Below, one piece after another: positions 2,921-47,285 of a DNA stretch of 47,285 bases (its first letter is position 1; each line of letters starts with the position of its first letter). The stretch is from sequence record KC579452. The stretch is one strand, 5' to 3'. Source of the stretch: Escherichia phage phiKP26. A program made the translations under genes and the position numbers. The notes under the pieces were generated by a model that was given only the letters and a program-made list of their open reading frames with translations, did not search any database and was not told where the DNA came from.

Positions 2921-2996
2921 GTTCTGCTGGCGTAACAGGATAACGCAGAGACCTCCTAAGTCTCAGTTACTGGTTCGAGTCCAGTGCGGAACACCA
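2921..2996 (+). tRNA. tRNA-Arg (anticodon CCT, reads AGG)
   Basis: Hand-folded cloverleaf: 7-bp acceptor stem (gttctgc/gcggaac, one G-U), D stem gcgt/acgc with GG in loop, anticodon stem gagac/gtctc, loop ctCCTaa with U33 and A37, T stem actgg/ccagt, T loop ttcgagt, discriminator A, encoded CCA. Confidence 0.8.
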
Positions 2997-3226: not shown

Positions 3227-3250
3227 GCCCTCCTTGTGAGGGCTTTTTTN
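3227..3250 (+). terminator. rho-independent terminator
   Basis: gccctc-cttgt-gagggc stem-loop followed by a T6 run. Confidence 0.7.
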
Positions 3251-3297
3251 CGTCCATAGTCATGGTACAATGACTTTTAAAACAGGAGGAATATCAA

Positions 3298-3813
3298 ATG
3301 TCAGAAGAGAAAAAAATTCACCAGAAGATTGGTAACTTCAAGGAGCTTTACAATAAGAAGTATGGCGACATTGCCAATCTTAAGATTAACCACAGATACA
3401 CTCCCGAGCAGGTATTCGACATGGCTGTAAGGTATTTCAGCTGGGCTGAAGAGCAGGCAATTAAAGCTATCGAGACAGCAAGCTTTCAGGGTGTCGTAAC
3501 GGAAAACCTTGTTCACAAGCCGAGGGTATTTACGATAACTGGATTCCAGCTTTTCTGCGGCGTTGGTCATAATGCTATTAGCAAATGGCGCTCATCACCA
3601 GGATTCGATGAAGTTATGGAGTTCGTCGACTCAGTTATCTTTGAACAGAAGTACCAGTTGGGTGTTAACAACATCGTCAACCCTGGACTTATTAGCAAAG
3701 ACCTTGGCATCGATAAGCCGCAAGAGGTTAACATCAACAACGCTTCTAATGCTGTAGTAAACGACGAGGAAGCAATGAAGTCTGCTCTGGCTTCTGTAAT
3801 GGATAAACTATGA
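3298..3813 (+). CDS. putative terminase small subunit
   Basis: 171-aa ORF immediately upstream of and overlapping the large terminase; call is by position only. Confidence 0.5.
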   Translation: MSEEKKIHQKIGNFKELYNKKYGDIANLKINHRYTPEQVFDMAVRYFSWAEEQAIKAIETASFQGVVTENLVHKPRVFTITGFQLFCGVGHNAISKWRSSPGFDEVMEFVDSVIFEQKYQLGVNNIVNPGLISKDLGIDKPQEVNINNASNAVVNDEEAMKSALASVMDKL

Positions 3814-5378
3814 AGACATTGGTTTGGGAAGAAATGACGCCAGCCGAAAAGCTGGCAGTTAAAGTGCTGTCCACTCACAGCTTCGAGGCATTCCTTCGCG
3901 TGTGGTTTCAGCTAAGCCAGGGAGAGCGATACATCCCTAACTGGCATCACAAGTACCTTTGCCGAATAATTGACGAGGTTATTAGTGGCGAGCGTAGGGA
4001 TACCATCATTAACGTGGCTCCCGGGGCCGGGAAGACCGAGATTACTTCAATACACTTCCCTGTATACTCAATGCTTAAGCTAAAGAAGGTGCGAAATCTG
4101 AGCCTCTCATTCTCTGACAGTCTGGTGAAGCGCAACTCTAAGCGTGTTCGCGACCTTATAAAGTCAGCTGAGTTTCAGGAACTATGGCCCTGTAAGTTCG
4201 GCACGTGCAAGGATGACGAGATTCAGGTTCTTGACGAGAGTGGAAAGGTTAGGTTCGAAGCGATATCTAAGGCAATTGGCGGTCAGATTACCGGCGCTCG
4301 TGGCGGTTATATTACTGAAACCTATAGCGGTTGCTTGATGCTTGATGACCCAGACAAGCCAGACGATATGCTCAGCAAGGTAAGGCGAGAAGCTGTCCAC
4401 GTTTTACTTAAAAATNCCATTCGCTCACGTAGGGCGAGTAGCGTTAAAGGTAAAGCTACGCCGATTTTGTCCATCCAGCAAAGGCTTCATACGCAGGATT
4501 CGACGTGGTTCATGACTTCTGGTGGTATGGGTATCGACTTTGATGTATTGAAGATACCGGCGCTGGTCACTGAAGAATATGTGAATGAACTTCCTGACTG
4601 GATTCGTGAGCAGTTCGAGAAGGACGTGCTTTCATCCGAGTACGTCGAGCGAGATGGTGTTAAGTATTACAGCTACTTCCCGCAGAAGGAATCTGCGCAT
4701 GACTTGATGGCAATGTGGGACTCAGATCCGTACACGTTCCTAAGCCAGTACCAACAATCTCCAGTAGCCTTAGGTGGAAACCTGATTAACGTAGATTGGT
4801 TCGTGAGGCTTGACGAGAACAACAGGCCGCCAGTCAAGTATGACTACCGCTTCATTACAGCTGATACTGCCATGACTACGAAGAGTTACAGCGATTATTC
4901 TGTGTTCCAGCTTTGGGGTAGAAAGGATAACAAGATTTATCTTCTGGATATGGTTAGGGGTAAATGGGAGGCTCCAGAGCTTGAGCAAACTCTTCTGAAC
5001 TTTGAGAGTAAGCACCGAGCAGCTAGTAAAACAGATGGTATCTTACGTAAGGTTATTATCGAGAAGAAAGCATCTGGCATAGGGCTTATCCAGTCAGCAG
5101 GTCGAACGATGCGGACTCCTATTGAGCCTTTCGTTCCCGATACAGATAAGTTAACCAGGGTGATGAGCGCATTACCACAGATTAAGGCTGGTAACGTAGT
5201 TCTGCCAGACTCAGCGCCATGGCTTACATCTCTGCTAACTGAGTTCTCGGCGTTCACTGCGGACGATTCACACCCCCATGATGACATTGTAGATACAACA
5301 ACGATGGCAATAAACTGTGAATTGAACTTGAGTGACGACCCAAGAGCTAGGTTAATGAGGCTAGCTGGAGTTAAGTAA
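3810..5378 (+). CDS. terminase large subunit
   Basis: 522 aa; Walker A-like NVAPGAGKTE, Walker B-like LMLDDPD, C-terminal nuclease-like region; canonical position. Confidence 0.85.
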   Translation: MKTLVWEEMTPAEKLAVKVLSTHSFEAFLRVWFQLSQGERYIPNWHHKYLCRIIDEVISGERRDTIINVAPGAGKTEITSIHFPVYSMLKLKKVRNLSLSFSDSLVKRNSKRVRDLIKSAEFQELWPCKFGTCKDDEIQVLDESGKVRFEAISKAIGGQITGARGGYITETYSGCLMLDDPDKPDDMLSKVRREAVHVLLKNXIRSRRASSVKGKATPILSIQQRLHTQDSTWFMTSGGMGIDFDVLKIPALVTEEYVNELPDWIREQFEKDVLSSEYVERDGVKYYSYFPQKESAHDLMAMWDSDPYTFLSQYQQSPVALGGNLINVDWFVRLDENNRPPVKYDYRFITADTAMTTKSYSDYSVFQLWGRKDNKIYLLDMVRGKWEAPELEQTLLNFESKHRAASKTDGILRKVIIEKKASGIGLIQSAGRTMRTPIEPFVPDTDKLTRVMSALPQIKAGNVVLPDSAPWLTSLLTEFSAFTADDSHPHDDIVDTTTMAINCELNLSDDPRARLMRLAGVK

Positions 5379-14697: not shown

Positions 14698-14721
14698 AGC
14701 CCCTTCACAGGGGCTTTTTTN
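14698..14721 (+). terminator. rho-independent terminator
   Basis: agcccct-tcac-aggggct hairpin followed by a T6 run. Confidence 0.7.
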
Positions 14722-14764
14722 ATGTTATAATTTCAACTCAAACAAACACGAGAGGATTATTTAA

Positions 14765-21286: not shown

Positions 21287-21335
21287 TTAGTGTAGAATGG
21301 CACAAATGGTTAAACAAACAACGAGGTTATATGAT

Positions 21336-24300
21336 ATGGCCGATTTGCCAAAGATTTATGGAAGCAAGGGTGGTAGCAAGAAGCCGCACACACCTGTAGA
21401 GCAAGAAGATAACCTGATTTCACTAAACAAGATTAAGGTGCTACTGGCTGTAGCTGATGGAGAGGTTGATTCTAGTTTCTCGCTCAAGGATGTTTACCTT
21501 GCTGACGTTCCGGTGCAAAACCAGGATAACTCATTCAACTATGAAGGTGTTACGGCAGAGTTTAGGTCTGGTACTCAGTCGCAGGATTACATCGCAGGAC
21601 TAGATGGCGCAGCTTCAGAGATTCAGGTTAGTCGTGAAATCAATAATGACACACCTTATATCATCGCAGTCAACAACAGTCAGCTATCAGCAATTCGAGT
21701 CAAGCTGTTCTGGCCTCGACTCGTTAAGCAAGAAGAGAATGGAGATTTAAATGGCACAACATGTGAATATGCAATCGATTTATCAGTTAATGGCTCAGCG
21801 TACACTGAGTATATCAGAGGCGTGGCTAACGGTAAAACTACAACAGGTTACGACCGCAGTATCAGGGTTAACTTACCAGCCGAGTTTAGCAGCGCTCTTG
21901 TTCGTATTAGGAAGTTAACGCCAGACTCAACAAATAGCACCCTGGTTAACGGGATGCAGATCACAACCTATCAGGAAGTAATCGATGCTAAATTCCGCTA
22001 CCCTCTTACGGCACTTGTTTACGTGGAGTTCAGTTCTGACCTGTTCCCTAACGGGATCCCAACTATAGCCATTAAGAAAAAGTGGAAACTTATCCGCGTA
22101 CCGACAAACTACAATCCAGAGACAAGGGCTTATAGCGGCACATGGAATGGAACTTTTAAAATGGCATGGTCTGACAACCCGGCCTGGGTTTTATATGATC
22201 TGGTGGTTAGTCAGCGCTACGGATTGGATCAGCGAGAGCTTGGTGTAGAGATTGATAAGTGGGGTCTGTATGAAGCAGCGCAATTCTGCGACCAGATGGT
22301 TCCTGATGGTAAGGGTGGAATGGAGCCGCGATATACTTGTAACGTTGTCATTCAGCAGAAAGTGGAAGCGTATCAGCTTATTCGTGACATCTGTTCTATC
22401 TTCCGCGGTTTAACCTTCTATGATGGTGAGCAAATCGGGATTGTTGTAGACAGGCCGCGCCAGCCAAGCTATGTGTTCACTAATGATAACGTTGTTGATG
22501 GATTGTTTAACAGGACATTCTCTAGCGACAAGAGCCTTTACACGACAGCCAACGTTCAGTTTGATGACGAGCAGAACAACTACCAGCAGGATGTCGAGCC
22601 AGTATTCGACTTAGAAGCAACACGCCGATTTGGTTACAACCCTGTAGACTTGACTGCAATTGGCTGCGTAAGGCGAAGCGAGGCTAACCGTCGCGGGCGT
22701 TGGTTGCTGAAAACAAACCTTCGCAGTGAAACGGTAACGTTCACAACTGGCCTCGAAGGCATGATTCCTATGATTGGTGATGTAATTGCCGTTAATGACC
22801 AGGCTTGGTCAAGCAACTACACATTAAACCTTTCGGGTCGAATTGTTGAAGCTACAGGTTTGCAGGTGTTCGTGCCATTCGCTATTGATGCTGACCCTGG
22901 CGACAGGATTTTAATCAACAAGCCAGATGGGAGCCCAGAGTACAGGACTATCGCTTCAGTATCTGCCGATAAGTTGACGCTTGAACTGAATACAGCATTC
23001 AGCTTCACACCTCAGCCGGATACGGTATTTGCAATCGACAAGCAGAATCTGGCGTTGCAGCAATACGTTGTGACAGGAATTCAAAAAGCAAACACGGACG
23101 GCGAGGATTCATTCCAGTACAGCATCACTGCGGTGCAGTATGACCCGAACAAGTATGACGAGATTGACTATGGTGTGAATATTGACGACAGGCCAACAAG
23201 TATCGTTGACCCTGACAGGATTTTACCACCTGAAAATATCACCGTTACTAGTTACAGCAAGGTAGTTCAGGGCTTAAGCGTTGAGACGATGGTTATTGGT
23301 TACGACAAGGTGCAGTATGCGAAAACATACAACGTACAGTGGCGCAAGAATAACGGCAACTGGATTAACGTACCTGAGACAGCTAATACCGAGGTTGATA
23401 TTGAAGGCATTTACGCTGGCATCTACGACGTCAGGGTTCGCGCCGTAACTGACCAGAAATCAGTGTCGGCATGGTCAGATATCACGACAGTTAGCCTGAC
23501 TGGCAAGATTGGGGAACCTTCGGAGCCGCCTGTAATTACGGCTTCTGATGATGAGGTTTTCGGGATTAGGGTTAAGTGGGGCTTCCCTACTGACTCAGCT
23601 GATACCGCTTACACCGAGCTTCAGCAGGTTCCTGATAATGGTGACGGAACATATACACCGGAGAACGCGTCACTGCTTACGCTGGTTCCGTATCCTCAAT
23701 ACGAATATTGGCACACCACTCTACCAGCAGGTAACGTGAGGTGGTACAGGGCCAGGATTATTGACAGGATAGGTAACGTATCTCCGTGGACTGATTTTGT
23801 CAGAGGTATGGCATCCGATGATGTAAGTGCGATCATTGGTGACATCAAGGTTGATATCGAAAACTCTGATGGTTACAAGTATCTTCTCCAGAACGCCATT
23901 GATGCAAATACTGACATCCAGAATCAGGCCGAAGCTATAATCGAGAACGCCCTGGCAAATGATACTGACGTACGCGTTATGACAAAGGAGAATCTTAACA
24001 GGAAGGCGGAATATCGCCAGGCAGTAAGTTTGATTGCTGATGAAACTCAGGCCCGTGTGGACGCTCTCACGCAGCTTAAAGCGCAGATTGATGATGAGAT
24101 TGTTGGTCAGATTACGACAATTGAAACCGCACTTGCTACGGAGACCGAAGCCAGGGCTACAGCTGATACTCAATTAAGCTCAAGGCTTGGTGATAACGAG
24201 GCGGCTTTGAATCAGAAGCTTGACTCTTATGCCACGGTCGAAGGTGTTGGTGTTCAGTACGGCGTTAAGCTCGGCCTGAAGTACAATGGGGTTGAGTACG

Positions 24301-24722
24301 GCGCTGGAATGAGCATGGAGTTAACTGGTAGTGGTGGAAATGTTCGTAGTCAGTTTATTTTTGATGCTAACAGGTTCGCAATCAGTAACGGCATTAGTTC
24401 TGGTTCCGGTCAGTGGTCGCTACCTTTCGTTGTGGAGAATAACCAGGTGTTCATTCAGAGCGCGGTGATTCAGGATGGTTCAATTACTAACGCGAAGATT
24501 GGTAACAGGATTCAATCAAACAACTATGTTGCTGGTAGTGCTGGTTGGGCAATTGATAAATCTGGTTTTGCTGAGTTAAGTAACGCTACCGTTCGCGGTA
24601 GTTTGTACGCTAACAATGGTAACTTCGCGTTTAACGGAACCAACAATACTGTCGTAATAAACAATAACGGCATAACTGTTAATTTACCAAATGGAGGTAG
24701 GGTAGTGGTTGGAGTATGGTAA
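21336..24722 (+). CDS. tail tip / host specificity protein (lambda gpJ-like)
   Basis: ~1128 aa; N-terminus MADLPKIYGSKGGSKKPHTPVEQEDNL resembles J-family N-termini; position after the I-like gene. Confidence 0.8.
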   Translation: MADLPKIYGSKGGSKKPHTPVEQEDNLISLNKIKVLLAVADGEVDSSFSLKDVYLADVPVQNQDNSFNYEGVTAEFRSGTQSQDYIAGLDGAASEIQVSREINNDTPYIIAVNNSQLSAIRVKLFWPRLVKQEENGDLNGTTCEYAIDLSVNGSAYTEYIRGVANGKTTTGYDRSIRVNLPAEFSSALVRIRKLTPDSTNSTLVNGMQITTYQEVIDAKFRYPLTALVYVEFSSDLFPNGIPTIAIKKKWKLIRVPTNYNPETRAYSGTWNGTFKMAWSDNPAWVLYDLVVSQRYGLDQRELGVEIDKWGLYEAAQFCDQMVPDGKGGMEPRYTCNVVIQQKVEAYQLIRDICSIFRGLTFYDGEQIGIVVDRPRQPSYVFTNDNVVDGLFNRTFSSDKSLYTTANVQFDDEQNNYQQDVEPVFDLEATRRFGYNPVDLTAIGCVRRSEANRRGRWLLKTNLRSETVTFTTGLEGMIPMIGDVIAVNDQAWSSNYTLNLSGRIVEATGLQVFVPFAIDADPGDRILINKPDGSPEYRTIASVSADKLTLELNTAFSFTPQPDTVFAIDKQNLALQQYVVTGIQKANTDGEDSFQYSITAVQYDPNKYDEIDYGVNIDDRPTSIVDPDRILPPENITVTSYSKVVQGLSVETMVIGYDKVQYAKTYNVQWRKNNGNWINVPETANTEVDIEGIYAGIYDVRVRAVTDQKSVSAWSDITTVSLTGKIGEPSEPPVITASDDEVFGIRVKWGFPTDSADTAYTELQQVPDNGDGTYTPENASLLTLVPYPQYEYWHTTLPAGNVRWYRARIIDRIGNVSPWTDFVRGMASDDVSAIIGDIKVDIENSDGYKYLLQNAIDANTDIQNQAEAIIENALANDTDVRVMTKENLNRKAEYRQAVSLIADETQARVDALTQLKAQIDDEIVGQITTIETALATETEARATADTQLSSRLGDNEAALNQKLDSYATVEGVGVQYGVKLGLKYNGVEYGAGMSMELTGSGGNVRSQFIFDANRFAISNGISSGSGQWSLPFVVENNQVFIQSAVIQDGSITNAKIGNRIQSNNYVAGSAGWAIDKSGFAELSNATVRGSLYANNGNFAFNGTNNTVVINNNGITVNLPNGGRVVVGVW

Positions 24723-24728
24723 ATGATT

Positions 24729-24749
24729 AAGCCCCTTTCGGGGCTTTTN
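24729..24749. terminator. bidirectional terminator between convergent genes
   Basis: aagcccc-tttc-ggggctt hairpin followed by T-run; lies between the J-like stop and the probable stop of the minus-strand gene. Confidence 0.65.
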
Positions 24750-24752
24750 CTT

Positions 24753-25724
24753 TNAGTAGAAGTTGGGAATAAATGGAAGTGCCATTGATATGTTTGTATC
24801 AAATGGGAATTGCGCGCCAGTTTGAGTTGAATAGTTACCTATAACAGTGCCTGGGACGGCTCTAACTGAACCTCCAGACATGCAAACACCCTTGTATCGT
24901 AAGTTATTATATCCACCAGTGACTCTAGTTGTCGCTCCGCATCTAAGTATTGGGAAGAACCCACCATTCACCGACTGGTAACCATTATTAATCTGCATAA
25001 ATCCACTTAGAACAAATGGCCTCCTGACGCTAGAGAAAACTATCTGCCCAGCGCTGTTTGATATCGTTAAACCCGGACCAGCTACTGGAGGTGTATTATT
25101 GAAAATAACTAACTGAACGTAAGTACTTGCAGCAACATCATCAATCCCATTGTACGTTATATCCCTACACCATATCGTACTACCATCACTTTCAAGTGAT
25201 ACGTTTNGGTTATCCCATTTACCAAANGGAATGCCGCCAACTGGCAATGATGCAGAGCCATTAACCTGGATGCCACCAACCCAAGCAGCAGTCATTAATC
25301 TGGAATTACTTGATATCGCTGTAAAGTCAGTCGAGTTCTCAACAAGGACACCGGGGCTTGATTGTGATGATGCTGGTAAAATCTCAAAGCACTGACCGCC
25401 AAACTGCAATATGCGACCATTAGCGCCGTTAAAGTTACTTAATGTAATCCTTCNAACCCCATCATTAACCTTCGAGAACCCATTCATGTAATAAACTTCT
25501 GGTATAACATCATATGCATCAACATAAACAGCCTGAGTTGGCAGGCAGAATGCTGTTGAGCCAGGAGTCATAGTCAGACCGAAATCCCATGATGATGCTG
25601 GTGAGCTTAACCCGCTAGTGTTTATTGAACCAGTCACGGCTGGAACTCTCAAGCCAGCTGTAATTTCCATTGCTGGCCTTCCGTCATTCAAATCTATCAA
25701 GATACCTTGAGGCATTATTTCCAC
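24753..25724 (-). CDS. Ser/Gly/Asn-rich beta-rich protein; candidate receptor-binding or tail-fibre accessory protein (function uncertain)
   Basis: ~323 aa; start overlaps the lipoprotein stop. Stop placed at a TNA codon at 24753-24755 just before the terminator; the track end at 24684 reads through an N. Confidence 0.5.
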
Positions 25725-25960
25725 TCCTTTGAGCCGTGATCTGCAACTGAGCCGCCGTAGCCTCCACCAACCTTTGACTCAATGCCAGCATAACGAATAT
25801 CAACCTCTCCAGCTGCAACAATAACACCACCTTTCCACTTAGCTACGCAAACATCACCCGCCTGAGTCGCACACCATCCGTCAGGGCGCGGACCAGAAGA
25901 ACAACCTACCGTCATGATTGCTGCTGCTGCGATGATTGCTGATTTGATGAAGTTAGTCAT
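25715..25960 (-). CDS. small lipoprotein, Cor/Llp-like superinfection-exclusion candidate
   Basis: 81 aa from the ATG at 25960 with RBS (aaggaa): [22 protein letters not shown]..., i.e. signal peptide plus lipobox-like Cys; Gly-rich mature part. Confidence 0.55.
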
Positions 25961-26010
25961 TTTGTATTCCTTAGTCAGTATGTTTCGTTTCGATGGAGTA
26001 ACTATAGCAA

Positions 26011-26054
26011 AGGCTTCTGCTGTAGTCTTTAGCAAATCGTGCTATTTTATATAC
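26011..26054 (-). promoter_or_regulatory. palindrome/-10 promoter-like element driving the lipoprotein operon
   Basis: Minus-strand reading: tagcacgatttgcta-N23-tatagt-tactccatcgaaacgaaa, then RBS and ATG at 25960. Confidence 0.45.
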
Positions 26055-27451: not shown

Positions 27452-28420
27452 ATGAGCTTCAAGGTTTACACTAGCGACGAGTTAACCAACGAAGCCTACC
27501 ACAAGGAGTCAGACCATGTGTCTGGCTCTGGTCTGGCTCACATCTTCTCAACTTGCCCCGCTGCTTATAAGTTTGCAGAGCATGATGATAGCAATAAGGC
27601 TTTAAAGTTCGGTACATTAGCCCACACGGTTATTCTTGAAAACTCTGTATTCGATGCGACTTACTATCGCCAGCCAGCGCAAGAAGAGTTTGATGATCTG
27701 ATTACTAGCAAGACTGCTTTGGCAACTCGGTTGAAGTCGATGGGTATTGCTGGAACATCTGGTAAGGATTATCCAGAATTAATGGAGATTCTGGCGCTGA
27801 GCGGTGAATCACTTAACGTATGGTGGGATATTCAGCGCTCTAACGAGGTTAAAGCGAACGGTCGCGAGATTGTATCAGCTAAAGACTTTGACACAGTACA
27901 TGCGATGCGAGAGGTGCTGTGTGGCATTCCTGCATACAATGCGATAGTGAACAGTAAAACCGCTCAGCGAGAGTTATCAATCTTCGGTGAGATTAACGAG
28001 TGCGGCGTTAAGGTTCGTCTTGACCATGTCGATGTCGTTGATGATGTAGTTTATATCCGTGACTACAAGACGACTAGCGACGCATCTCCATCTGGATTTG
28101 GGAGATTGGCCTTCAAGCATGGTTACTTGCTAAAAATGGCGCTTCAGCATGATTTGTTTGTTCGCGCCTTTAATGAGAAGCGTCGAGTTGTTGTTCAGCT
28201 TCTTTGCCAGGAAANGAAAAGCCCATTCCTTCCAATGTGCTACACGATAACAAAAGAGCACTTAAAGGTTGGTAGATTGCAATACATGAGCGCCCTATCC
28301 ACATACAAGCAATGCAAGAAACTTGATATTTGGCCTGGTTACGGATTTGGCGAAACAGAGATGGAACTGCAAGTTCCTGAGTATGAGATGAAGAAGTACG
28401 AAGATAGCACGAATAGCTAA
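27452..28420 (+). CDS. PD-(D/E)xK family exonuclease (recombination exonuclease)
   Basis: 322 aa; D...VVDDVVYIRDYKTT motif characteristic of PD-(D/E)xK nucleases; immediately upstream of Erf. Confidence 0.6.
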   Translation: MSFKVYTSDELTNEAYHKESDHVSGSGLAHIFSTCPAAYKFAEHDDSNKALKFGTLAHTVILENSVFDATYYRQPAQEEFDDLITSKTALATRLKSMGIAGTSGKDYPELMEILALSGESLNVWWDIQRSNEVKANGREIVSAKDFDTVHAMREVLCGIPAYNAIVNSKTAQRELSIFGEINECGVKVRLDHVDVVDDVVYIRDYKTTSDASPSGFGRLAFKHGYLLKMALQHDLFVRAFNEKRRVVVQLLCQEXKSPFLPMCYTITKEHLKVGRLQYMSALSTYKQCKKLDIWPGYGFGETEMELQVPEYEMKKYEDSTNS

Positions 28421-28476: not shown

Positions 28477-29103
28477 ATGAAGACTTCAGAGAGTAACAAA
28501 ACAGTTTTACAGGCACTATTTAAAGCTCGCACAGGATTTGCGAAGGCGGCAAGAGACAAGCAGAACAGTCACCTAAAGAATAGATACGCAACACTTGATT
28601 CCATGCTGGAGGCTGTAATCCCAGCACTTGATGATAACGACTTAATGATTATGCAGAGCATGTTAGAAACATCAACTACTGACAATCTTAACGTAGAGAC
28701 GACTCTCTATCACGTTTCTGGCGAGTGGGTTAGCTTCTTCATGATTATGCCAATAGTTAAGAAAGACCCGCAAGGAGTAGGATCTGCATTTACATACGCT
28801 CGGCGTTACTCACTAGCGGCGGCTTTGGGAATTAGTCAGTCTGACGATGATGCGCAGATGGCAGTTAAGAGCGTCAAGGACTGGAAGCGCGATATTGAGA
28901 AGGCAGAAACTCGAGAAGAGCTTATCGAAATCTACAAATCATGCAAATCACAAGCTGACACGGCAACGTGGGGTATAGTAGAGAAAGCGATAATAGATAA
29001 ACAAGCAGAGATCAAAATGGCTTCCGCAAGTGGCTTCAACCCAGCTAAGCCAAAGGAAGTCGCTAAAAAAGTTGCAAACGCAACGAATGAAGTAGTAAAA
29101 TAA
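28477..29103 (+). CDS. Erf-family single-strand annealing protein
   Basis: 208 aa; GSAFTYARRYSLAAALG matches the conserved ERF core. Confidence 0.7.
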   Translation: MKTSESNKTVLQALFKARTGFAKAARDKQNSHLKNRYATLDSMLEAVIPALDDNDLMIMQSMLETSTTDNLNVETTLYHVSGEWVSFFMIMPIVKKDPQGVGSAFTYARRYSLAAALGISQSDDDAQMAVKSVKDWKRDIEKAETREELIEIYKSCKSQADTATWGIVEKAIIDKQAEIKMASASGFNPAKPKEVAKKVANATNEVVK

Positions 29104-29392
29104 AAATAAATAAAGCTGTTCCAAAATAAAAGGGGCCTAAAACCCTAAATAAAACAAAATATGATATGAATTGGGACATATTCTCTGATATNNNGATTGG
29201 TAAGGCGGCGTGGAANTATAGAGAAGAAATACGGCAAGAGTAAATNGGAAGATATAAAGGATAAAAAGGAGGAAAGATTAGAAATGAAGAGATGGAGAGC
29301 GTAAGCATAGGAATTATCGAGCTACCTNCTTTGCTAGCGAGGCGCAAATTAGCTGGTATGACGAAGCATTTCAGGAAGGAAAAGTTATCTCT

Positions 29393-29599
29393 GTGAGCGG
29401 CGATTCATTAGCGGTTAATGAGCGCGAACATAATGGCAAGACATATATTACGCTTGAGTTGCAGAATCCTCGATTGATGTTTAGTCAGCGAGGAGGTGAA
29501 TCAGAACAGCAGCAGCAGCGACAACAAGCTCAACAGCAACAGAGACAGCAGCCGCAGCAACAAAGCCGATTTAGTGATGAAGATGATATTCCGTTTNAA
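29393..29599 (+). CDS. ssb: single-stranded DNA-binding protein, C-terminal part only (5' part unresolved)
   Basis: Ends ...SRFSDEDDIPF followed by NAA (probably TAA), the canonical SSB acidic tail; Q-rich linker; the OB-fold region upstream is broken by stops and Ns. Confidence 0.55.
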
Positions 29600-29608
29600 T
29601 GCAAAAGA

Positions 29609-29632
29609 TAAAGCCCCTTTCGGGGCTTTTTN
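29609..29632. terminator. bidirectional terminator between convergent ssb and tailspike genes
   Basis: aagcccc-tttc-ggggctt hairpin with a T-run on the plus side and an A-run on the other side. Confidence 0.7.
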
Positions 29633-32348
29633 ATTGTGACGTTACATCACCATTCAAACTCAAAANTACTGATTGTTTNGTCAAATCAACACCACCTTTA
29701 AGCGAATAGTATCTTGAAGCGCAATAATCAGACTCATCTGAATAGCTGCCAACGTAAACACCAAAGCCATATCCAGAGCAAGCTACATCACCAGCGCCTT
29801 GACCTGAATACATGGTTACATAGTTACCAGCTGTTGTTAGTATAGGTCTGACATCAATATCTATATACTGAGAATCAAATGACCTTCTAACTCTAAATCC
29901 AGTATTCAGGTTTAAGATGCTCCACCAAACCTTACCAGATACATCAAAACCAAGAGCAATATTGTAAGTACCACCATTGACCATTCTTGATGAGACTGGC
30001 AACACACCTGATAAAACTCTTGTTTCACCTGATGCTGATATTAACAATGAGACACTGTGTTCTCCTGATGCCATCACGTTATACTGCAAGTAAAGAGCAT
30101 TACTATTAACTCCAAAACCAGTCCCTATAGCTATAAGGTTAAAGTCTTCAGCAACAGTTATGGTCGGCGATATATTGCATGTAGCGGTGAAACCTAGTGA
30201 CGGGTCAAATCCAGTGCATATAATCTTATCTTTATTTGCCTGTGAAAGCCTTAGCCAATATTGCTGCCCAACTGATGATGCCGCTGCGGCGAATACTGGT
30301 GTATTAGAGACCCCATCAAAAGCTGAAGTGTCGTTTGCTGGCTTAATTCTTGTCTTCCTTTTGTCTATCAGTCCGTTTATCTTCAGGTTTCCTGAATACT
30401 CAGCAACATAGTTAGTGTCCCCTGAGAAATTTGGGCCAAAGTAACCAGATTCAACAACCCCATCGATCACAACATCAGATCTTGAGTCAAGGAATCTGAA
30501 GTTGCCAGCGGAAGTTGGCCTTCCATCGCCATTGTTAGATACATAGTTAAGCCCAACAAAACCATAGATTCTTACAGAGCTATTTGAAAACGAAACGTTA
30601 TAATCTCTGTAGTTTGAGTTTATGCTGTTCCTGTTACTATTTAATCCATTAAATACCACATTTCTAGAGTTTACAATTCTAACACCGTCACCACCGCAAT
30701 CCTGCGCCTCTATAGCTGACATGGTGATGTTTTGGCAGTTATCAATCAGGATGCCATAAGCATCATCAAGCTCATTATAAGCCGACCAACCCGACCAAAT
30801 AAACTTACCGCCAACAATCCTACAGTTTCCGGCATTCCTAAGTATTAGACAATTTCTTCCACAGGTGTTTACCTGTATGTTATTCCATGTGAAGTCTGTT
30901 GTTTCGTTAATCAATCCGCCTTTTTTNATGTGCTGAATAAGAACATCATCAAGAACAGGAGAGTAGTTACCAGCAGCAACGAAAATTCCGTAAACATCAA
31001 ACCCAGCAATGTGAGTGTTTCTTATCGTTAAGTCCCTCCTAGGGTCAGCACCAGTGTTGAATGGGTAATTGGTTGATAACCCAGTCGGCGTAGGGATGTA
31101 AATCCCAGCAGTACCATCAGTAAACGCCGTGTCTTGCTGGGCTCCAGTGCCGTAAAGAGCAATACCTTCAATATGAATGAGCGAGCAAGAATCAGAAACC
31201 TCAATTAAAGAGCCAATTGATGAACTAAGCTGAGTTATTCTTGACTTGTGCTTGCCAAAACCAATTATAGAGCAAGATTTATTTCTCATTACCAGGTTTG
31301 ATGCCATGTAGTCGCTATCAAGCTTTAATGCCAGCCCGGAGTCTAGGATTTGCTGTATCTGTGTCGTTGAGTCTGATGTCGATGACTTAATGGCCCCAAG
31401 TTCGCAAGGCGACAGCTCCCCGCTACAGATTCTTTCCCAGTAATAACCTGTACTTGATTCAAAAACCAATCCTGAAGATAATCCATATGATAAAGATGAC
31501 TCCGGCTTACAAACAAAGAACCCACCACCATAACCAAGACCACCAATGTAAGAATCACAATAGACAACCTCTAAGTCATAAATTCTGGCAGAGTTTGTCA
31601 TTGCTGATACTGATTCAAACCTTCTTGTGTAATCCTGTTGAATCCAAAAACCAACTCCAATACCACCTGTAGACTGTGGTGATGAGTTTTGTGGTATGGA
31701 TTTTGGAACGCTACCAGACCAGTAATAAACCGAAACATGATTGTCATTAANGTAAATTGCAGGCTGAGTTCTTGAGTTTATTTCTCCACCATTTGAGAAA
31801 TCAACTACAAGAGCAGATGACACAGAAGCCGCAGCAGAGCTTGCTATTGTAGCTGAAGAGGAAGCCGAGTTAGCGCTACTTTCAGCTAACTGCCTATCAG
31901 AAGATACCTGATCTTTGTCAGAAGAAACTTGAGCAGCATCAACAGCAACTTGCTGAGATTGCATGTTGACATTATTTACGCTTTGCTGGAAAGAATCAGA
32001 ATCAAATTGATTAAAAGCATCAACTGCCGCTGCAACCTCTGTTTCACGGGACTGATAATAACGAAGTGTCTCAGCAACGTCCTGAGCAAGACCTTGGACA
32101 GTAATTCCGTCATGAGCAAGGATTGAGTACTGAGTCCCAGCTGGCGCAGTAAAACCTTTATCATTGAATACACGAATCTCTGTATCGCTTAAAATCTCAG
32201 CGATAGTAACAATGCTTGTCGGGGTGGTGTTAAAAATCATTGTTGCGCCAACTCGGATTAGCGTTAGTGGTTGCCTCCACGTGGTGCCAACACCAGTTAC
32301 AGTTCCGTCAGCTGCAAGCGATGCAGTTCCAGCGTCATAAATTGCCAT
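29631..32348 (-). CDS. tail fibre / tailspike protein with probable beta-helix (depolymerase-like) central domain
   Basis: ~905 aa; N-terminal fibre-anchor-like domain, Ser/Ala-rich linker, long Asn/Gly/Ser-rich repetitive beta region; stop placed at a TNA codon at 29631-29633. Confidence 0.65.
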
Positions 32349-32426
32349 GTTATTTCTCCTATTTGATAGATGAAACCTATTGTATCAGATTAAATGCAAT
32401 AAAAANCCCTCCGAAGAGGGTGATTG

Positions 32427-33350
32427 CTATGAATGCTTATCTATCAGATCTTGCGGGTTATATAACCTTCTTTCAAGCCCCATCTTGAAATTGCCACCTT
32501 TAGGTATTACGACTTTTAGACCTCTATCATCAGCAACATAAAGCGACTCCTTTTCATCAGCTAAGCAAGCTATCCTGCACTCTTTATTCCTGAGTTCATA
32601 AGCAACCATTTCTAAGTTGTGGTGAGTTAGGCAGTCGTAAGTTGNCCTTTTTGTGCATGCCGATACATGTAGTGCGTTAATCCAGCCAACAGTGAGGTAG
32701 ATAGCGCCATCACTACATTTACTTACCGGAACAACCGAGCCGCGAGTGTAGTCTTTTGCGAGATATGACTCATTACCCTCTTCATCTATAAACTTTACGT
32801 TACAAGGCTCATCTGATAAACCATCCTCGTAAACCATAAAGCATTGCTCGGCTATAATTTCTTCTCCAGACCCCTTTATTCCTATTTTGTATTCCCGTTC
32901 AGTAATAATTGCTTCAAATCTCGTAAGCTGTGTCATTTCTACAGACTTGGTGCGAGAGATTACCTTCTCGATTGATTCAATGGATGCCTGAGCGCCAAAG
33001 TTATATCTCTGAACTCGGCTCGCTGCTTTGTTTGCCTTCACTATGATTTCGACGGGAGTCAAATTAAGCCAGTCGCCAAGTAAATTTATAGCTTCCACAA
33101 ATCTAAGGCCGGAACATTTCATAACCCAGCCTATTCCTGAGTCACTGCCGCACTTAGAGCAAACTGCGGCCCCATTACCTTTTTCGCTTCCTATTTCGTC
33201 TGTAAACCTGAATCTGTCAGTACCAAAGCAATAAGGGCACGGCCCGTGCTTCTTGCTAAGGTGTCTATCATTCCAACCAAGCTCCTTTGCATAAAATGAT
33301 TTCCACAATCCAGCCATTTTAGGTATTACTTCATTCTTGTCGTAATTCAT
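32427..33350 (-). CDS. DNA primase (zinc-ribbon plus TOPRIM-like)
   Basis: 307 aa; CPYC-x19-CSKC zinc-ribbon near the N-terminus; acidic TOPRIM-like segment; adjacent to the helicase region. Confidence 0.55.
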   Translation of the reverse strand: MNYDKNEVIPKMAGLWKSFYAKELGWNDRHLSKKHGPCPYCFGTDRFRFTDEIGSEKGNGAAVCSKCGSDSGIGWVMKCSGLRFVEAINLLGDWLNLTPVEIIVKANKAASRVQRYNFGAQASIESIEKVISRTKSVEMTQLTRFEAIITEREYKIGIKGSGEEIIAEQCFMVYEDGLSDEPCNVKFIDEEGNESYLAKDYTRGSVVPVSKCSDGAIYLTVGWINALHVSACTKRXTYDCLTHHNLEMVAYELRNKECRIACLADEKESLYVADDRGLKVVIPKGGNFKMGLERRLYNPQDLIDKHS

Positions 33351-46961: not shown

Positions 46962-47285
46962 AAAAAATAAGTNANNAACCCCCACCACCAAAAAAACCAN
47001 NAACACANNNANAAATAACAACAAATAACAACCAAAAACCCANNNAAAAACANCAACACAACANCACNAANAANNCNCCACANAANAAAGGACAAATAAC
47101 ANNAGGATGCGAAGANACGNAGNNNNGCNNNNAGTANNCTNCGCAANNNNNGACAGGCNNNGGTGGACCCTCGTCACCGTAACACTTACAGGTACGCACG
47201 GACGGTAACGGTCGGACGAGGCAGGGTACGTACGGTCGGTAGGGACGGCGGGTACCTAGGTAGGGGTACTTTCGGAACGGTAACG
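46923..47285. other. Low-quality / artefactual sequence tail (N-rich, A/C homopolymer-rich)
   Basis: Dense Ns, poly-A and poly-C runs, no coherent reading frame; the ORFs predicted here are full of X. Confidence 0.8.

Follow-up and report, generated by a model that had tools for sequence, protein, structure and literature searches.

A probable lateral tailspike of the T1-like phage phiKP26 with a TSP2-type enzyme module

Results and Discussion

The large minus-strand gene between ssb and the primase gene of Escherichia phage phiKP26 very probably encodes the side (lateral) tailspike of a T1-like O157 phage, a protein of four-part build with an enzyme module of the TSP2 type. We base this reading on the observed homology, fold, catalytic-residue conservation, synteny, and modularity of the tailspike in the 47,285-nt sequence of record KC579452 (hereafter, the window). 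The source phage, which comes from E. coli O157, is a T1-like siphophage (Drexlerviridae, Rogunavirus). Earlier publications already describe the gene, its locus among the replication genes, its modular build, and its relationship to TSP2 and phiV10; homology among TSP2, phiV10, and JK06 was reported by Kutter et al. 2011. Our analysis leaves current understanding unchanged. It does provide a residue-by-residue link from the Rogunavirus spike to the crystallised and mutagenised TSP2 of phage CBA120.

The tailspike gene and its orthologs

The gene is a single open reading frame on the minus strand, running from an ATG at 32348..32346 to codon 906 at 29633..29631, which reads TNA. This agrees with the initial annotation, which had placed a gene of about 905 aa here. 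Because the N at 29632 masks the stop codon, the uninterrupted reading frame reaches 29571. The AHP42 ortholog also has 905 aa and the same end point (DVTSQ, then stop), and the two proteins differ by three real substitutions and three X residues arising from N. The sequence quality of KC579452 is low, with 149 N's in the record and some codons of the gene masked by N. Once these codons are filled, the protein matches the tail fiber protein of C119 at 100% identity.

At the DNA level, the gene is ~99% identical to tail fiber or tail spike genes of phiJLA23, C119, AHP42, Rogue1, BECP10, and JK06, and the protein matches PHROG 4818 over its full length. Full-length protein identity across Rogunavirus phages (JK06 orf75/YP_277515, Rogue1, AHP24/AHS24/AHP42/AKS96, C119, phiJLA23, and BECP10, whose ORF is annotated TSP) is 97-100%, with the same neighbors and terminators around the gene. 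Unlike in phiKP26, the gene is split into two pieces in the JK06 and UDF157lw records. Several plus-strand ORFs of 58-83 aa lie inside the tailspike gene, and nothing points to their being genes.

Genomic position

The features of the locus are collected in Table 1. The tailspike gene had been described as lying 5 kb from the tail-tip module, between the recombination genes and the primase, and convergent with ssb. All of this held: the distance from the end of the gpJ-like gene (24722) to the 3′ end of the tailspike gene is 4.9 kb, exonuclease VIII, Erf, and ssb are on the plus strand, and the primase is on the minus strand. Only the 3′ 68 codons of ssb are intact in this record; its 5′ part is garbled, with five in-frame stops from the expected start.

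The full arrangement, with a convergent ssb (or its T1 counterpart) and an upstream primase, recurs in T1, AHP42, Sf12, and a metagenomic relative, and the primase is also directly upstream on the same strand in P817, Rao1, EC3a, LHE71, tunzivis, and Reinasaurus. The slot between ssb and primase is shared with the Drexlerviridae lateral tail fibers, and Maffei et al. 2021 (PMC8594841, S1C Fig) describe it as the variable lateral-fiber locus of that family. In T1, ST26 occupies the same slot: recE-erf-ssb and a two-way terminator are followed by the fiber and primase genes on the opposite strand. The T1 gene has the same conserved 5′ end, but the fiber or enzyme modules that follow the anchor in T1 and in most K-12 phages are unrelated.

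Table 1. Features of the tailspike locus and the tail-tip gene in the window (positions in the 47,285-nt sequence)
Feature	Coordinates	Strand	Basis
gpJ-like central tail fiber (tail tip)	21297..24722	+	PHROG 31 central tail fiber J, E 0
Exonuclease VIII	27452..28420	+	
Erf	28477..29103	+	
ssb, 3′ part, convergent; ends DDIPF + stop NAA	29393..29599	+	PHROG 44 single-strand DNA-binding protein, E 7.8e-10; AHP42 ssb alignment
Two-way intrinsic terminator common to ssb and tailspike	29610..29629	both	8-bp hairpin; terminator scan scores both strands
Lateral tailspike gene (probable), 905 sense codons + stop TNA (N at 29632)	29631..32348	-	ORF and sequence
C-terminal beta-sandwich domain, aa 651-905 (boundary approximate)	29634..30398	-	TSP2 identity, AF2
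Neck, insertion domain, right-handed parallel beta-helix catalytic domain, aa 241-650 (approximate)	30399..31628	-	phmmer, AF2, Foldseek
Catalytic-residue span	30699..30896	-	Alignment to TSP2
Asp550 (Arg573 and Tyr602 just downstream)	30699..30701	-	
Glu547	30708..30710	-	
Asp485	30894..30896	-	
Tailspike head domain D1 (Pfam Tail_spike_N), aa 178-240	31629..31817	-	PF18668 + PDB matches
Ser/Ala/Gln-rich segment, one long predicted alpha-helix, aa 119-177	31818..31994	-	Composition, AF2
Drexlerviridae lateral-fiber anchor, presumed virion attachment, aa 1-118	31995..32348	-	tblastn + database homologs
Shine-Dalgarno AGGAG, 7 nt before ATG	32356..32360	-	Read from sequence
Candidate extended -10 element TGATACAAT	32379..32387	-	Sequence; cross-genome alignment
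Post-primase intrinsic terminator	32401..32420	-	Hairpin 32420..32407, T-run 32405..32401; terminator scan
DNA primase, directly upstream of tailspike	32427..33350	-	PHROG 510, E 2e-96

A TSP2-type enzyme module

The closest structural reference for the spike is TSP2 (ORF211) of the Kuttervirus myophage CBA120, a glycosidase of the O157 O-antigen. Residues 242-891 match crystallised TSP2 (5W6P/6W4Q) with a phmmer E of 3e-173 over 5W6P residues 24-669; 293/646 aligned positions are identical (~45%), with 46% identity in the C-terminal aa 651-891. The homology runs from the neck through the insertion domain and beta-helix to the C-terminal domain.

The initial annotation had proposed a beta-helix polysaccharide depolymerase from the periodicity of a long Asn/Gly/Ser/Thr-rich region and had called for structure prediction. 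The composition of aa 331-650 bears out the richness in these residues (N 10%, G 10.6%, S 10%, T 5.6%), and both the TSP2 homology and an AlphaFold2 (AF2) model of the monomer support a beta-helix depolymerase. The model has pLDDT 80-95 over aa 180-600; short strands follow one another regularly between about aa 340 and aa 632 (pLDDT 85-95), and further strands lie in the C-terminal domain at aa 720-866 (pLDDT 70-87). Its top Foldseek matches are 5W6P/6W4Q (E 1e-55, TM 0.80, target-normalised), followed by other beta-helix tailspikes, so that the predicted fold is a right-handed parallel beta-helix followed by a beta-sandwich, as in TSP2. Because Pfam PF13229 Beta_helix scored 22.0 bits at aa 438-591, under its cut-off of 25.9, we base the beta-helix assignment on PDB homology and the model. 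The center of the gene had also been called repetitive; this is true structurally, as the beta-helix rungs of the model, but not at the DNA level, where Tandem Repeats Finder detected no repeats inside the gene except a trivial 19-nt match. The module (aa 242-905) probably forms a right-handed beta-helix homotrimer that ends in a beta-sandwich and, by analogy with TSP2, would have its active sites in clefts between the subunits.

The active site is conserved as well. Asp485, Glu547, Asp550, Arg573, and Tyr602 align with TSP2 Asp506, Glu568, Asp571, Arg594, and Tyr623, and all five are invariant in a three-way alignment of the phiKP26 spike, CBA120 TSP2, and phiV10 gp25. In TSP2, the roles of Asp506/Asp571, the alternative pair Glu568/Tyr623, and Arg594 were set by mutagenesis (PMC7506556). 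Differences from TSP2 include its chloride-binding Asn565, which is Ser544 in the phiKP26 spike, and Arg284, Asp415, and Lys465, which are not conserved. We consider it very improbable that the protein is a fiber that recognizes the O157 O-antigen without cleaving it. Most GenBank records do say “tail fiber,” and the Pfam score below cut-off would fit such a protein, but five of five TSP2 catalytic residues are kept, the predicted fold is that of the active glycosidase, and two phages with the same gene, BECP10 and UDF157lw, form haloed plaques.

The same module occurs in phages with other means of attachment. The tailspikes of phiV10 (gp25; a Uetakevirus O157 podophage) and of P22-type prophages (P0004) share it at 38-48% identity and with invariant catalytic residues, but the phiV10 anchor is epsilon15-like and the P0004 anchor is the P22 head-binding domain PF09008, both different from that of phiKP26. 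The N-terminus of TSP2 is likewise unrelated, as it contains a 168-residue region for a branched four-spike complex where the phiKP26 spike has a Drexlerviridae anchor and helix. The spike lacks this assembly region (TSP2 residues 1-168) and falls outside the Ackermannviridae TSP1-4 complex, because phmmer homology starts at TSP2 residue 264 and the N-terminus is the Drexlerviridae anchor.

Anchor, stalk, and head domain

The N-terminal fiber-anchor-like domain noted in the initial annotation is supported by its conservation. Residues 1-118 recur in 838 phage records, nearly all Drexlerviridae / T1-like (tblastn), and are kept at ≥70% identity in 113 of the 120 best database homologs. This conserved anchor of ~118 aa is the one found in Drexlerviridae lateral tail fibers, including that of the T1 ST26 locus. 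The AF2 model is unusable here (aa 1-115, pLDDT 30-40). In a PDB sequence search with aa 1-240, the anchor matched Klebsiella depolymerase constructs only, and that part is unmodelled in 7LZJ.

These constructs are the K2 capsule depolymerases DpK2 of Klebsiella Webervirus RAD2 and Depo32 of GH-K3 (7LZJ, 7VYV/7VZ3). Anchor and stalk (aa 1-175) match the N-termini of 7LZJ/7VYV with E 1e-37, and the plan of the proteins is the same: anchor, helix bundle, beta-helix, and C-terminal domain. The catalytic module and its substrate, the K2 capsule, differ from those of the phiKP26 tailspike, and past aa 176 the likeness is structural only (TM 0.34-0.36, 10-11% identity). Webervirus gene order is rearranged relative to the phiKP26 locus.

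The segment after the anchor had been annotated as a Ser/Ala-rich linker. It is Ser/Ala-rich (aa 119-181: 28.6% Ser, 19% Ala, 12.7% Gln) but not a plain linker, as AF2 predicts a helix of ~60 residues at aa 117-177 (pLDDT 54-69). The homologous DpK2 spike has an extended triple-helical bundle at its N-terminus (PMC8552709), and the predicted helix probably corresponds to a bundle of this type. The stalk is followed by a head domain recognized by Pfam PF18668 Tail_spike_N (TSP1/Gp66 N-terminal head domain; aa 182-237, E 2.8e-13, 50.2 bits against a cut-off of 25) and by PDB sequence matches to D1 of CBA120 TSP1/3/4 and to the 4QNL tail fiber protein (E 1e-4 to 8e-4). In the mechanism that we propose, the family-specific anchor would fix the spike to the tail; the helical stalk (aa 117-177) and small head domain (aa 178-240) lie between the anchor and the TSP2-type module.

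From the anchor conservation and the DpK2 comparison, we infer that the spike is attached to the virion tail. The alternative of a free soluble depolymerase, released at lysis and not part of the virion, appears extremely improbable. The gene does lie outside the structural module, and the spike went undetected in published virion proteomics: gel-band mass spectrometry of AHP24, AHS24, AHP42, and AKS96 virions identified the 124-kDa gpJ-like fiber, not the ~97-kDa spike, and the Rogue1 and AHP-phage papers contain no virion evidence for it, the Rogue1 analysis covering three bands only. Against a free enzyme, the first 118 aa show strong conservation whereas the whole remainder of the protein is exchanged, a pattern that fits docking onto a conserved virion partner. 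DpK2, with its homologous anchor, has a size that fits the tail appendages seen on RAD2 virions (PMC8552709), and tail fibers of UDF157lw are visible by electron microscopy. Finally, loss of O-antigen blocks plating and periodate lowers adsorption; therefore, the virion itself appears to recognize surface polysaccharide.

Modularity of the locus

The initial annotation had considered this displaced receptor-binding gene a likely hot spot for host-range swapping, which could be checked by comparing the locus across related phages. The comparison supports that view: the slot is the same, the anchor is conserved, and the C-termini are swapped. Among 114 anchor-bearing proteins, similarity to the phiKP26 spike ends at aa 140-159 in 27 and at aa 220-259 in 57, and the C-terminal parts of these relatives fall into 69 unrelated clusters. 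The first class of breakpoints lies within the helix and the second around the end of the head domain. New specificities probably come from recombination directly behind the anchor or directly behind the head domain, and these two preferred junctions could guide the design of chimeric spikes on a T1-like chassis.

Substrate and host specificity

Most likely, the spike both binds and cleaves the surface polysaccharide chain of O157. The TSP2-type module is confined to phages of O157, Kutterviruses, or relatives (107 records), and the BECP10 module is 98.9% identical to that of phiKP26. In addition to its haloed plaques, BECP10 shows abolished or reduced adsorption after periodate treatment, and O-antigen mutants (wzy or rfaJ) do not support its plating (PMC8402813). 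We infer from these data that the phiKP26 spike itself would cleave the O157 O-antigen. As TSP2 identity is only ~45%, its fine specificity could differ.

It is conceivable but quite improbable that the spike is an enzyme acting on something other than the O157 O-antigen, such as a different surface polysaccharide or an O-antigen that is modified or related. The modest identity to TSP2 would allow this, TSP2 gave halos on O157:H7 cells without O-antigen (PMC7506556), a generic E. coli strain also supports plating of UDF157lw, and a homolog is present in Citrobacter sedlakii (P0008). Opposing these points, the module spans unrelated virion types that have O157 hosts in common.

With O157 O-antigen as the substrate, the spike would bind it first and then cleave it by acid/base catalysis through Asp485 and Asp550, with Glu547, Tyr602, and Arg573. 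Cleavage would carry the virion through the O-antigen layer, so that in a two-step adsorption the central fiber and tail tip (gpJ) could reach a terminal receptor. The spike most likely restricts infection almost entirely to E. coli O157, which is relevant to phage biocontrol and to detection of this pathogen. Some recent Rogunavirus papers call the receptor-binding protein unknown or assign the depolymerase elsewhere, as in the UDF157lw paper, which credits depolymerase activity to ORF_26, a “major tail protein”; the homology argues otherwise.

Transcription of the tailspike gene

At its 3′ end, the tailspike gene shares a bidirectional terminator with ssb, as had been proposed from the sequence. 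The hairpin scores on both strands, lies within the 31 nt that separate the two stop codons, and is annotated on both strands in AHP42 and T1. Folding of the orthologous AHP42 sequence gave -16.5 and -14.4 kcal/mol (z -3.8 and -3.4).

The earlier claim that the gene is independently transcribed is plausible from sequence features, as the gap between primase and tailspike contains a conserved terminator followed by a candidate extended -10 element. In the AHP42 sequence, the post-primase terminator folds at -12.8 kcal/mol (z -4.6), and its stem is conserved with compensatory changes in nine Drexlerviridae, with 88.9% of cells paired versus 43-69% in slid controls. The TGnTAnAAT-like element aligns in 8/9 family members, and T1 and LHE71 also carry TTGCAA-17-TAAAAT. 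TGnTAnAAT is not enriched in the 47,285-nt window (10 found vs 9.5 expected); the support for the element comes only from this cross-genome conservation. A generic sigma-70 scan returned no promoter in the primase-tailspike gap, and sigma-70 promoter-like sites were fewer than in shuffled sequence (15 vs 22). The gene is bracketed by terminators and would probably be read from its own extended -10 promoter.

A minority reading, which we consider unlikely, is that the tailspike gene forms the end of an operon of regulator, primase, and tailspike genes, with readthrough from a promoter upstream of the regulator. The three genes are on one strand with a primase-tailspike gap of only 78 nt, the stem of the post-primase hairpin is just 5-6 bp, the AHP42 annotation has a promoter only before the regulator and neither promoter nor terminator between primase and fiber, and the lack of TGnTAnAAT enrichment also fits. 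Weighing against the operon are the family-wide conservation of the hairpin and T-run with compensatory changes, the extended -10 that follows it in eight of the nine genomes, and the canonical -35 at 17 bp in T1 and LHE71. It is also unlikely that a virion protein needed in many copies would be expressed at the same level as a primase.

Returning to independent transcription, a broader version of it is speculative. The gene may be a self-contained, insulated cassette, with a covarying terminator and a -35-less extended -10 at its 5′ end and the two-way terminator at its 3′ end, as part of a family-wide T1 “punctuation” system; we consider this idea unlikely. If true, T1 punctuation would set late-gene expression, and receptor modules could be swapped without disturbing the replication genes.

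Two further observations concern these intergenic elements. A unit of a terminator followed by TGnTAnAAT is also present at intergenic positions 3227..3271 and 14699..14731. Between the -10 element and the ribosome-binding site, most subfamilies, not including Rogunavirinae, carry a TAGCA-N5-TGCTA palindrome, which could be an operator for some regulator.

Predicted structure and catalytic residues of the spike

The minus-strand spike gene starts with the ATG at 32348 and ends at codon 906, TNA (29633..29631); masking of the stop by the N at 29632 is the sole reason that the open reading frame is called as far as 29571. Its orthologue in the related Rogunavirus phage AHP42 is 905 aa long and stops at exactly the same codon, with three substitutions and three N-derived X residues distinguishing the two proteins. 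The composition is as described in the initial annotation, with a Ser/Ala-rich segment at aa 119-181 (29% Ser, 19% Ala, and 13% Gln) and an Asn/Gly/Ser-rich center at aa 331-650 (each about 10%). We found no DNA-level repeats in the spike gene, so the "repetitive" character ascribed to this center is true only structurally.

Features of the spike protein (aa) and of the window (nucleotides)
Feature	Position	Strand	Remarks
Anchor	aa 1-118		tblastn match in 838 phage records, nearly all of them Drexlerviridae
Ser/Ala-rich "linker"	aa 117-177		Single long helix predicted by AlphaFold2
Head domain	aa 178-240		Pfam Tail_spike_N, 50 bits (cut-off 25)
Catalytic module	aa 242-891		Homologous to CBA120 TSP2 (5W6P, 6W4Q), E 3e-173, 45% identity
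tRNA-Arg(CCU)	2921..2996	+	Agrees with the genus description, which reports a single tRNA
Two-way hairpin, 8 bp, GC-rich	29610..29629	both	Inside the 31-nt gap between ssb and spike stops
AGGAG, then ATG	32360..32356	-	Downstream of the extended -10 element
Candidate extended -10 element TGATACAAT	32387..32379	-	3' of the hairpin; aligned in 8 of 9 genomes
Hairpin with adjoining T-run	32420..32407	-	Directly after primase stop; -12.8 kcal/mol, z -4.6

The anchor is found in Drexlerviridae infecting Escherichia, Klebsiella, Shigella, Citrobacter, and others, is present at at least 70% identity in 113 of the 120 best proteins from a large protein database, and aligns at E 1e-37 with the N-terminal regions of DpK2 (7LZJ) and Depo32 (7VYV/7VZ3), two depolymerases of Klebsiella phages. 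The DpK2 N-terminus forms an extended triple-helical bundle (PMC8552709), with which the helix predicted for the spike linker is consistent. The head domain also matches those of CBA120 TSP1, TSP3, and TSP4 and of the 4QNL tail fiber protein.

Structure prediction, which had been proposed as a check, bore out the beta-helix fold. The AlphaFold2 model, built from a 33-sequence alignment, had a mean pLDDT of 69, with values of 80-95 across aa 180-600. Its best Foldseek match was TSP2, the O157 O-antigen glycosidase of CBA120 (E 1e-55, target-normalized TM 0.80), followed by the beta-helix tailspikes TSP4, K2-2 TSP, Depo32, DpK2, and Acinetobacter spikes.

Mutagenesis of TSP2 showed that Asp506 and Asp571 are used, with Glu568 and Tyr623 as an alternative pair and Arg594 nearby; these residues occupy an intersubunit cleft of the trimer (Greenfield et al. 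2020; PMC7506556). In a three-way alignment of the spike, TSP2, and gp25 of the O157 podophage phiV10, Asp506, Asp571, Glu568, Tyr623, and Arg594 correspond to spike Asp485, Asp550, Glu547, Tyr602, and Arg573, and all are invariant. By contrast, the ion-binding residues Arg284, Asp415, Lys465, and Asn565 of TSP2 are not conserved in the spike, where Asn565 is replaced by Ser544.

Probable O157 specificity and proposed role

The catalytic module is present in 107 phage records, 19 of them Rogunavirus-type at at least 95% identity and the others all below 60%. Among the matches listed below 60%, most are CBA120-like Escherichia/Salmonella phages of about 157 kb (46-49% identity), with phiV10 and an O157 typing phage at 39%. 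Further occurrences in the large protein database are a 785-aa spike of a P22-type E. coli prophage (P0004), which carries a PF09008 head-binding anchor, and a 795-aa protein of a Citrobacter sedlakii genome, named "effector protein" (P0008). The window itself is a near-identical match to phiJLA23, C119, AHP42, Rogue1, BECP10, and JK06, T1-like siphophages specific for O157 (Drexlerviridae, Rogunavirinae, Rogunavirus).

BECP10, whose module is 98.9% identical to that of the window, forms haloed plaques, and its adsorption is lost after periodate and retained after proteinase K; it does not plate on wzy::Tn5 or rfaJ::Tn5 mutants lacking O157 agglutination, and complementation restores plating (PMC8402813). 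Based on the module distribution and the BECP10 data, the most likely mechanism is a virion-borne trimeric endoglycosidase that would bind the O157 O-antigen and cut it, letting the tail tip reach the outer membrane. We infer trimerization, virion attachment, and O157 cleavage for the spike itself; published virion proteomics, which covers a few gel bands only, found a 124-kDa gpJ-like fiber and not the ~97-kDa spike. The O-antigen step appears to be obligatory for Rogunavirus, and the TSP2-type spike is almost certainly the depolymerase.

In practical terms, the receptor-binding protein is still listed as unknown in some recent Rogunavirus papers. One of them, the UDF157lw paper, describes that phage as lacking a tail spike and ascribes the depolymerase activity to a "major tail protein." In the records of UDF157lw (OQ243221.1, 30817-32807) and JK06 (NC_007291, 40519-42505), the spike gene appears as two "tail fiber protein" CDSs, and its tblastn match to each comes in two pieces. 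A frameshift or sequencing error in the UDF157lw record may have misled that paper's reading.

The fiber locus across Drexlerviridae

The spike gene is already known, is of a familiar kind, and sits where it is expected, at the normal location for the family, and the relationship between TSP2, phiV10, and JK06 was already described by Kutter et al. 2011 (PMC3184105). The described neighborhood was confirmed: the plus strand carries exonuclease VIII, Erf, and ssb, the primase is directly upstream of the spike on the minus strand, and the gpJ-like central fiber ends at 24722, 4.9 kb away (5 kb had been claimed). The primase is likewise directly upstream and on the same strand as the fiber in Sf12, P817 (Nouzillyvirus), Rao1, EC3a (Guelphvirus), LHE71 (Tunavirus), tunzivis (Warwickvirus), Reinasaurus (Tlsvirus), and a metagenomic relative with a 61% identical spike, whereas gene order is rearranged in the Webervirus Skenny. 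An explicit account of this locus is given in the S1C Fig legend of Maffei et al. 2021 (PMC8594841), with synteny in the recombination and primase/helicase genes on either side and conservation of the fiber gene restricted to its far 5' end.

Among 114 anchor-bearing proteins compared with the window spike, similarity ends inside the helix (aa 140-159) in 27 and after the head domain (aa 220-259) in 57. Their C-terminal parts form 69 unrelated clusters, with Pfam domains including pectate-lyase-like, SGNH esterase, GDPD, sialidase, and S74 chaperone. The two preferred breakpoints and 69 clusters indicate that the locus was rightly called a hot spot for host-range swapping, a reading already established in the literature.

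In Shigella phage Sf12, the gene in the fiber slot, gp27 (4001-5197 of its locus, L005; 398 aa), has been given the annotation "winged helix-turn-helix DNA-binding protein," probably wrongly, since it shares 96% identity with the spike anchor over its first 102 aa. Directly downstream of gpJ are two minus-strand genes (24684-26035), one of 346 aa that falls in PHROG 1265 ("membrane protein") and has DUF6453 assigned in a relative, and one of 106 aa for which relatives carry a lipoprotein annotation. Maffei et al. assign the terminal-receptor binding locus of small siphoviruses to this position; the literature consulted does not name the terminal receptor of this genus.

Sequence quality of the record

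The window contains 149 N's, dense at 1-250 and 46970-47161. Many are directly 3' of homopolymer runs (TTTTTTN, AAAAAAN), and several affect stop codons or the T-runs of terminators (29597, 29632, 32406, 3250, and 14721), so ORF finders over-extend or break genes throughout the record. The 5' end of ssb, roughly 115 nt, and the intergenic sequence preceding it (29119-29290) are only ~50% identical to AHP42, against ~99% for the remainder of the ssb/spike locus. This stretch is purine-rich, breaks the ssb frame with five in-frame stops, and has N's in or near it (29192-29194, 29216, 29246, and 29328); it looks like low-quality sequence rather than biology.

Putative transcription signals around the spike gene

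The ssb stop, NAA at 29597..29599, follows ...DDIPF. The terminator said to be shared with ssb was recovered as the two-way hairpin, which scores as a terminator in both directions; the orthologous AHP42 hairpin folds well beyond shuffled controls (z -3.8 and -3.4). In T1, recE, erf, and the ssb-position gene ST27 run into terminators annotated on both strands, and the tail fiber gene ST26, downstream of the primase ST24, meets ST27's terminator site from the opposite direction.

The stem of the hairpin after the primase is kept in nine Drexlerviridae through compensatory changes (CCCTC/GAGGG, CCTCC/GGAGG, CCGCC/GGCGG, and CCCCGC/GCGGGG), with 88.9% of cells paired, vs 43-69% with a slid partner, and six doubly changed cells. 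A canonical promoter, TTGCAA-17-TAAAAT, is additionally present in T1 and LHE71. The conserved hairpin and extended -10 element thus support, by inference, the initial description of the spike gene as independently transcribed. Against it, the extended -10 motif is not enriched within the window, and the AHP42 annotation places no promoter between the primase and fiber genes; read-through from the primase operon is the less likely alternative.

Two further intergenic units, 3227-3271 (+) and 14699-14731 (+), share the architecture upstream of the spike: a GC-rich hairpin and T-run, TGnTAnAAT 2-13 nt on (TGGTACAAT at 3263 and TGTTATAAT at 14723), then an RBS and ATG (at 3298 and 14765). Such terminator-promoter units may be general punctuation in T1-like genomes. 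A conserved palindrome, TAGCA-N5-TGCTA, absent from the window and Sf12 (Rogunavirinae), lies between the extended -10 and the fiber RBS in P817, Rao1, EC3a, LHE71, and tunzivis, where it may act as an operator or form a hairpin in the 5' UTR.
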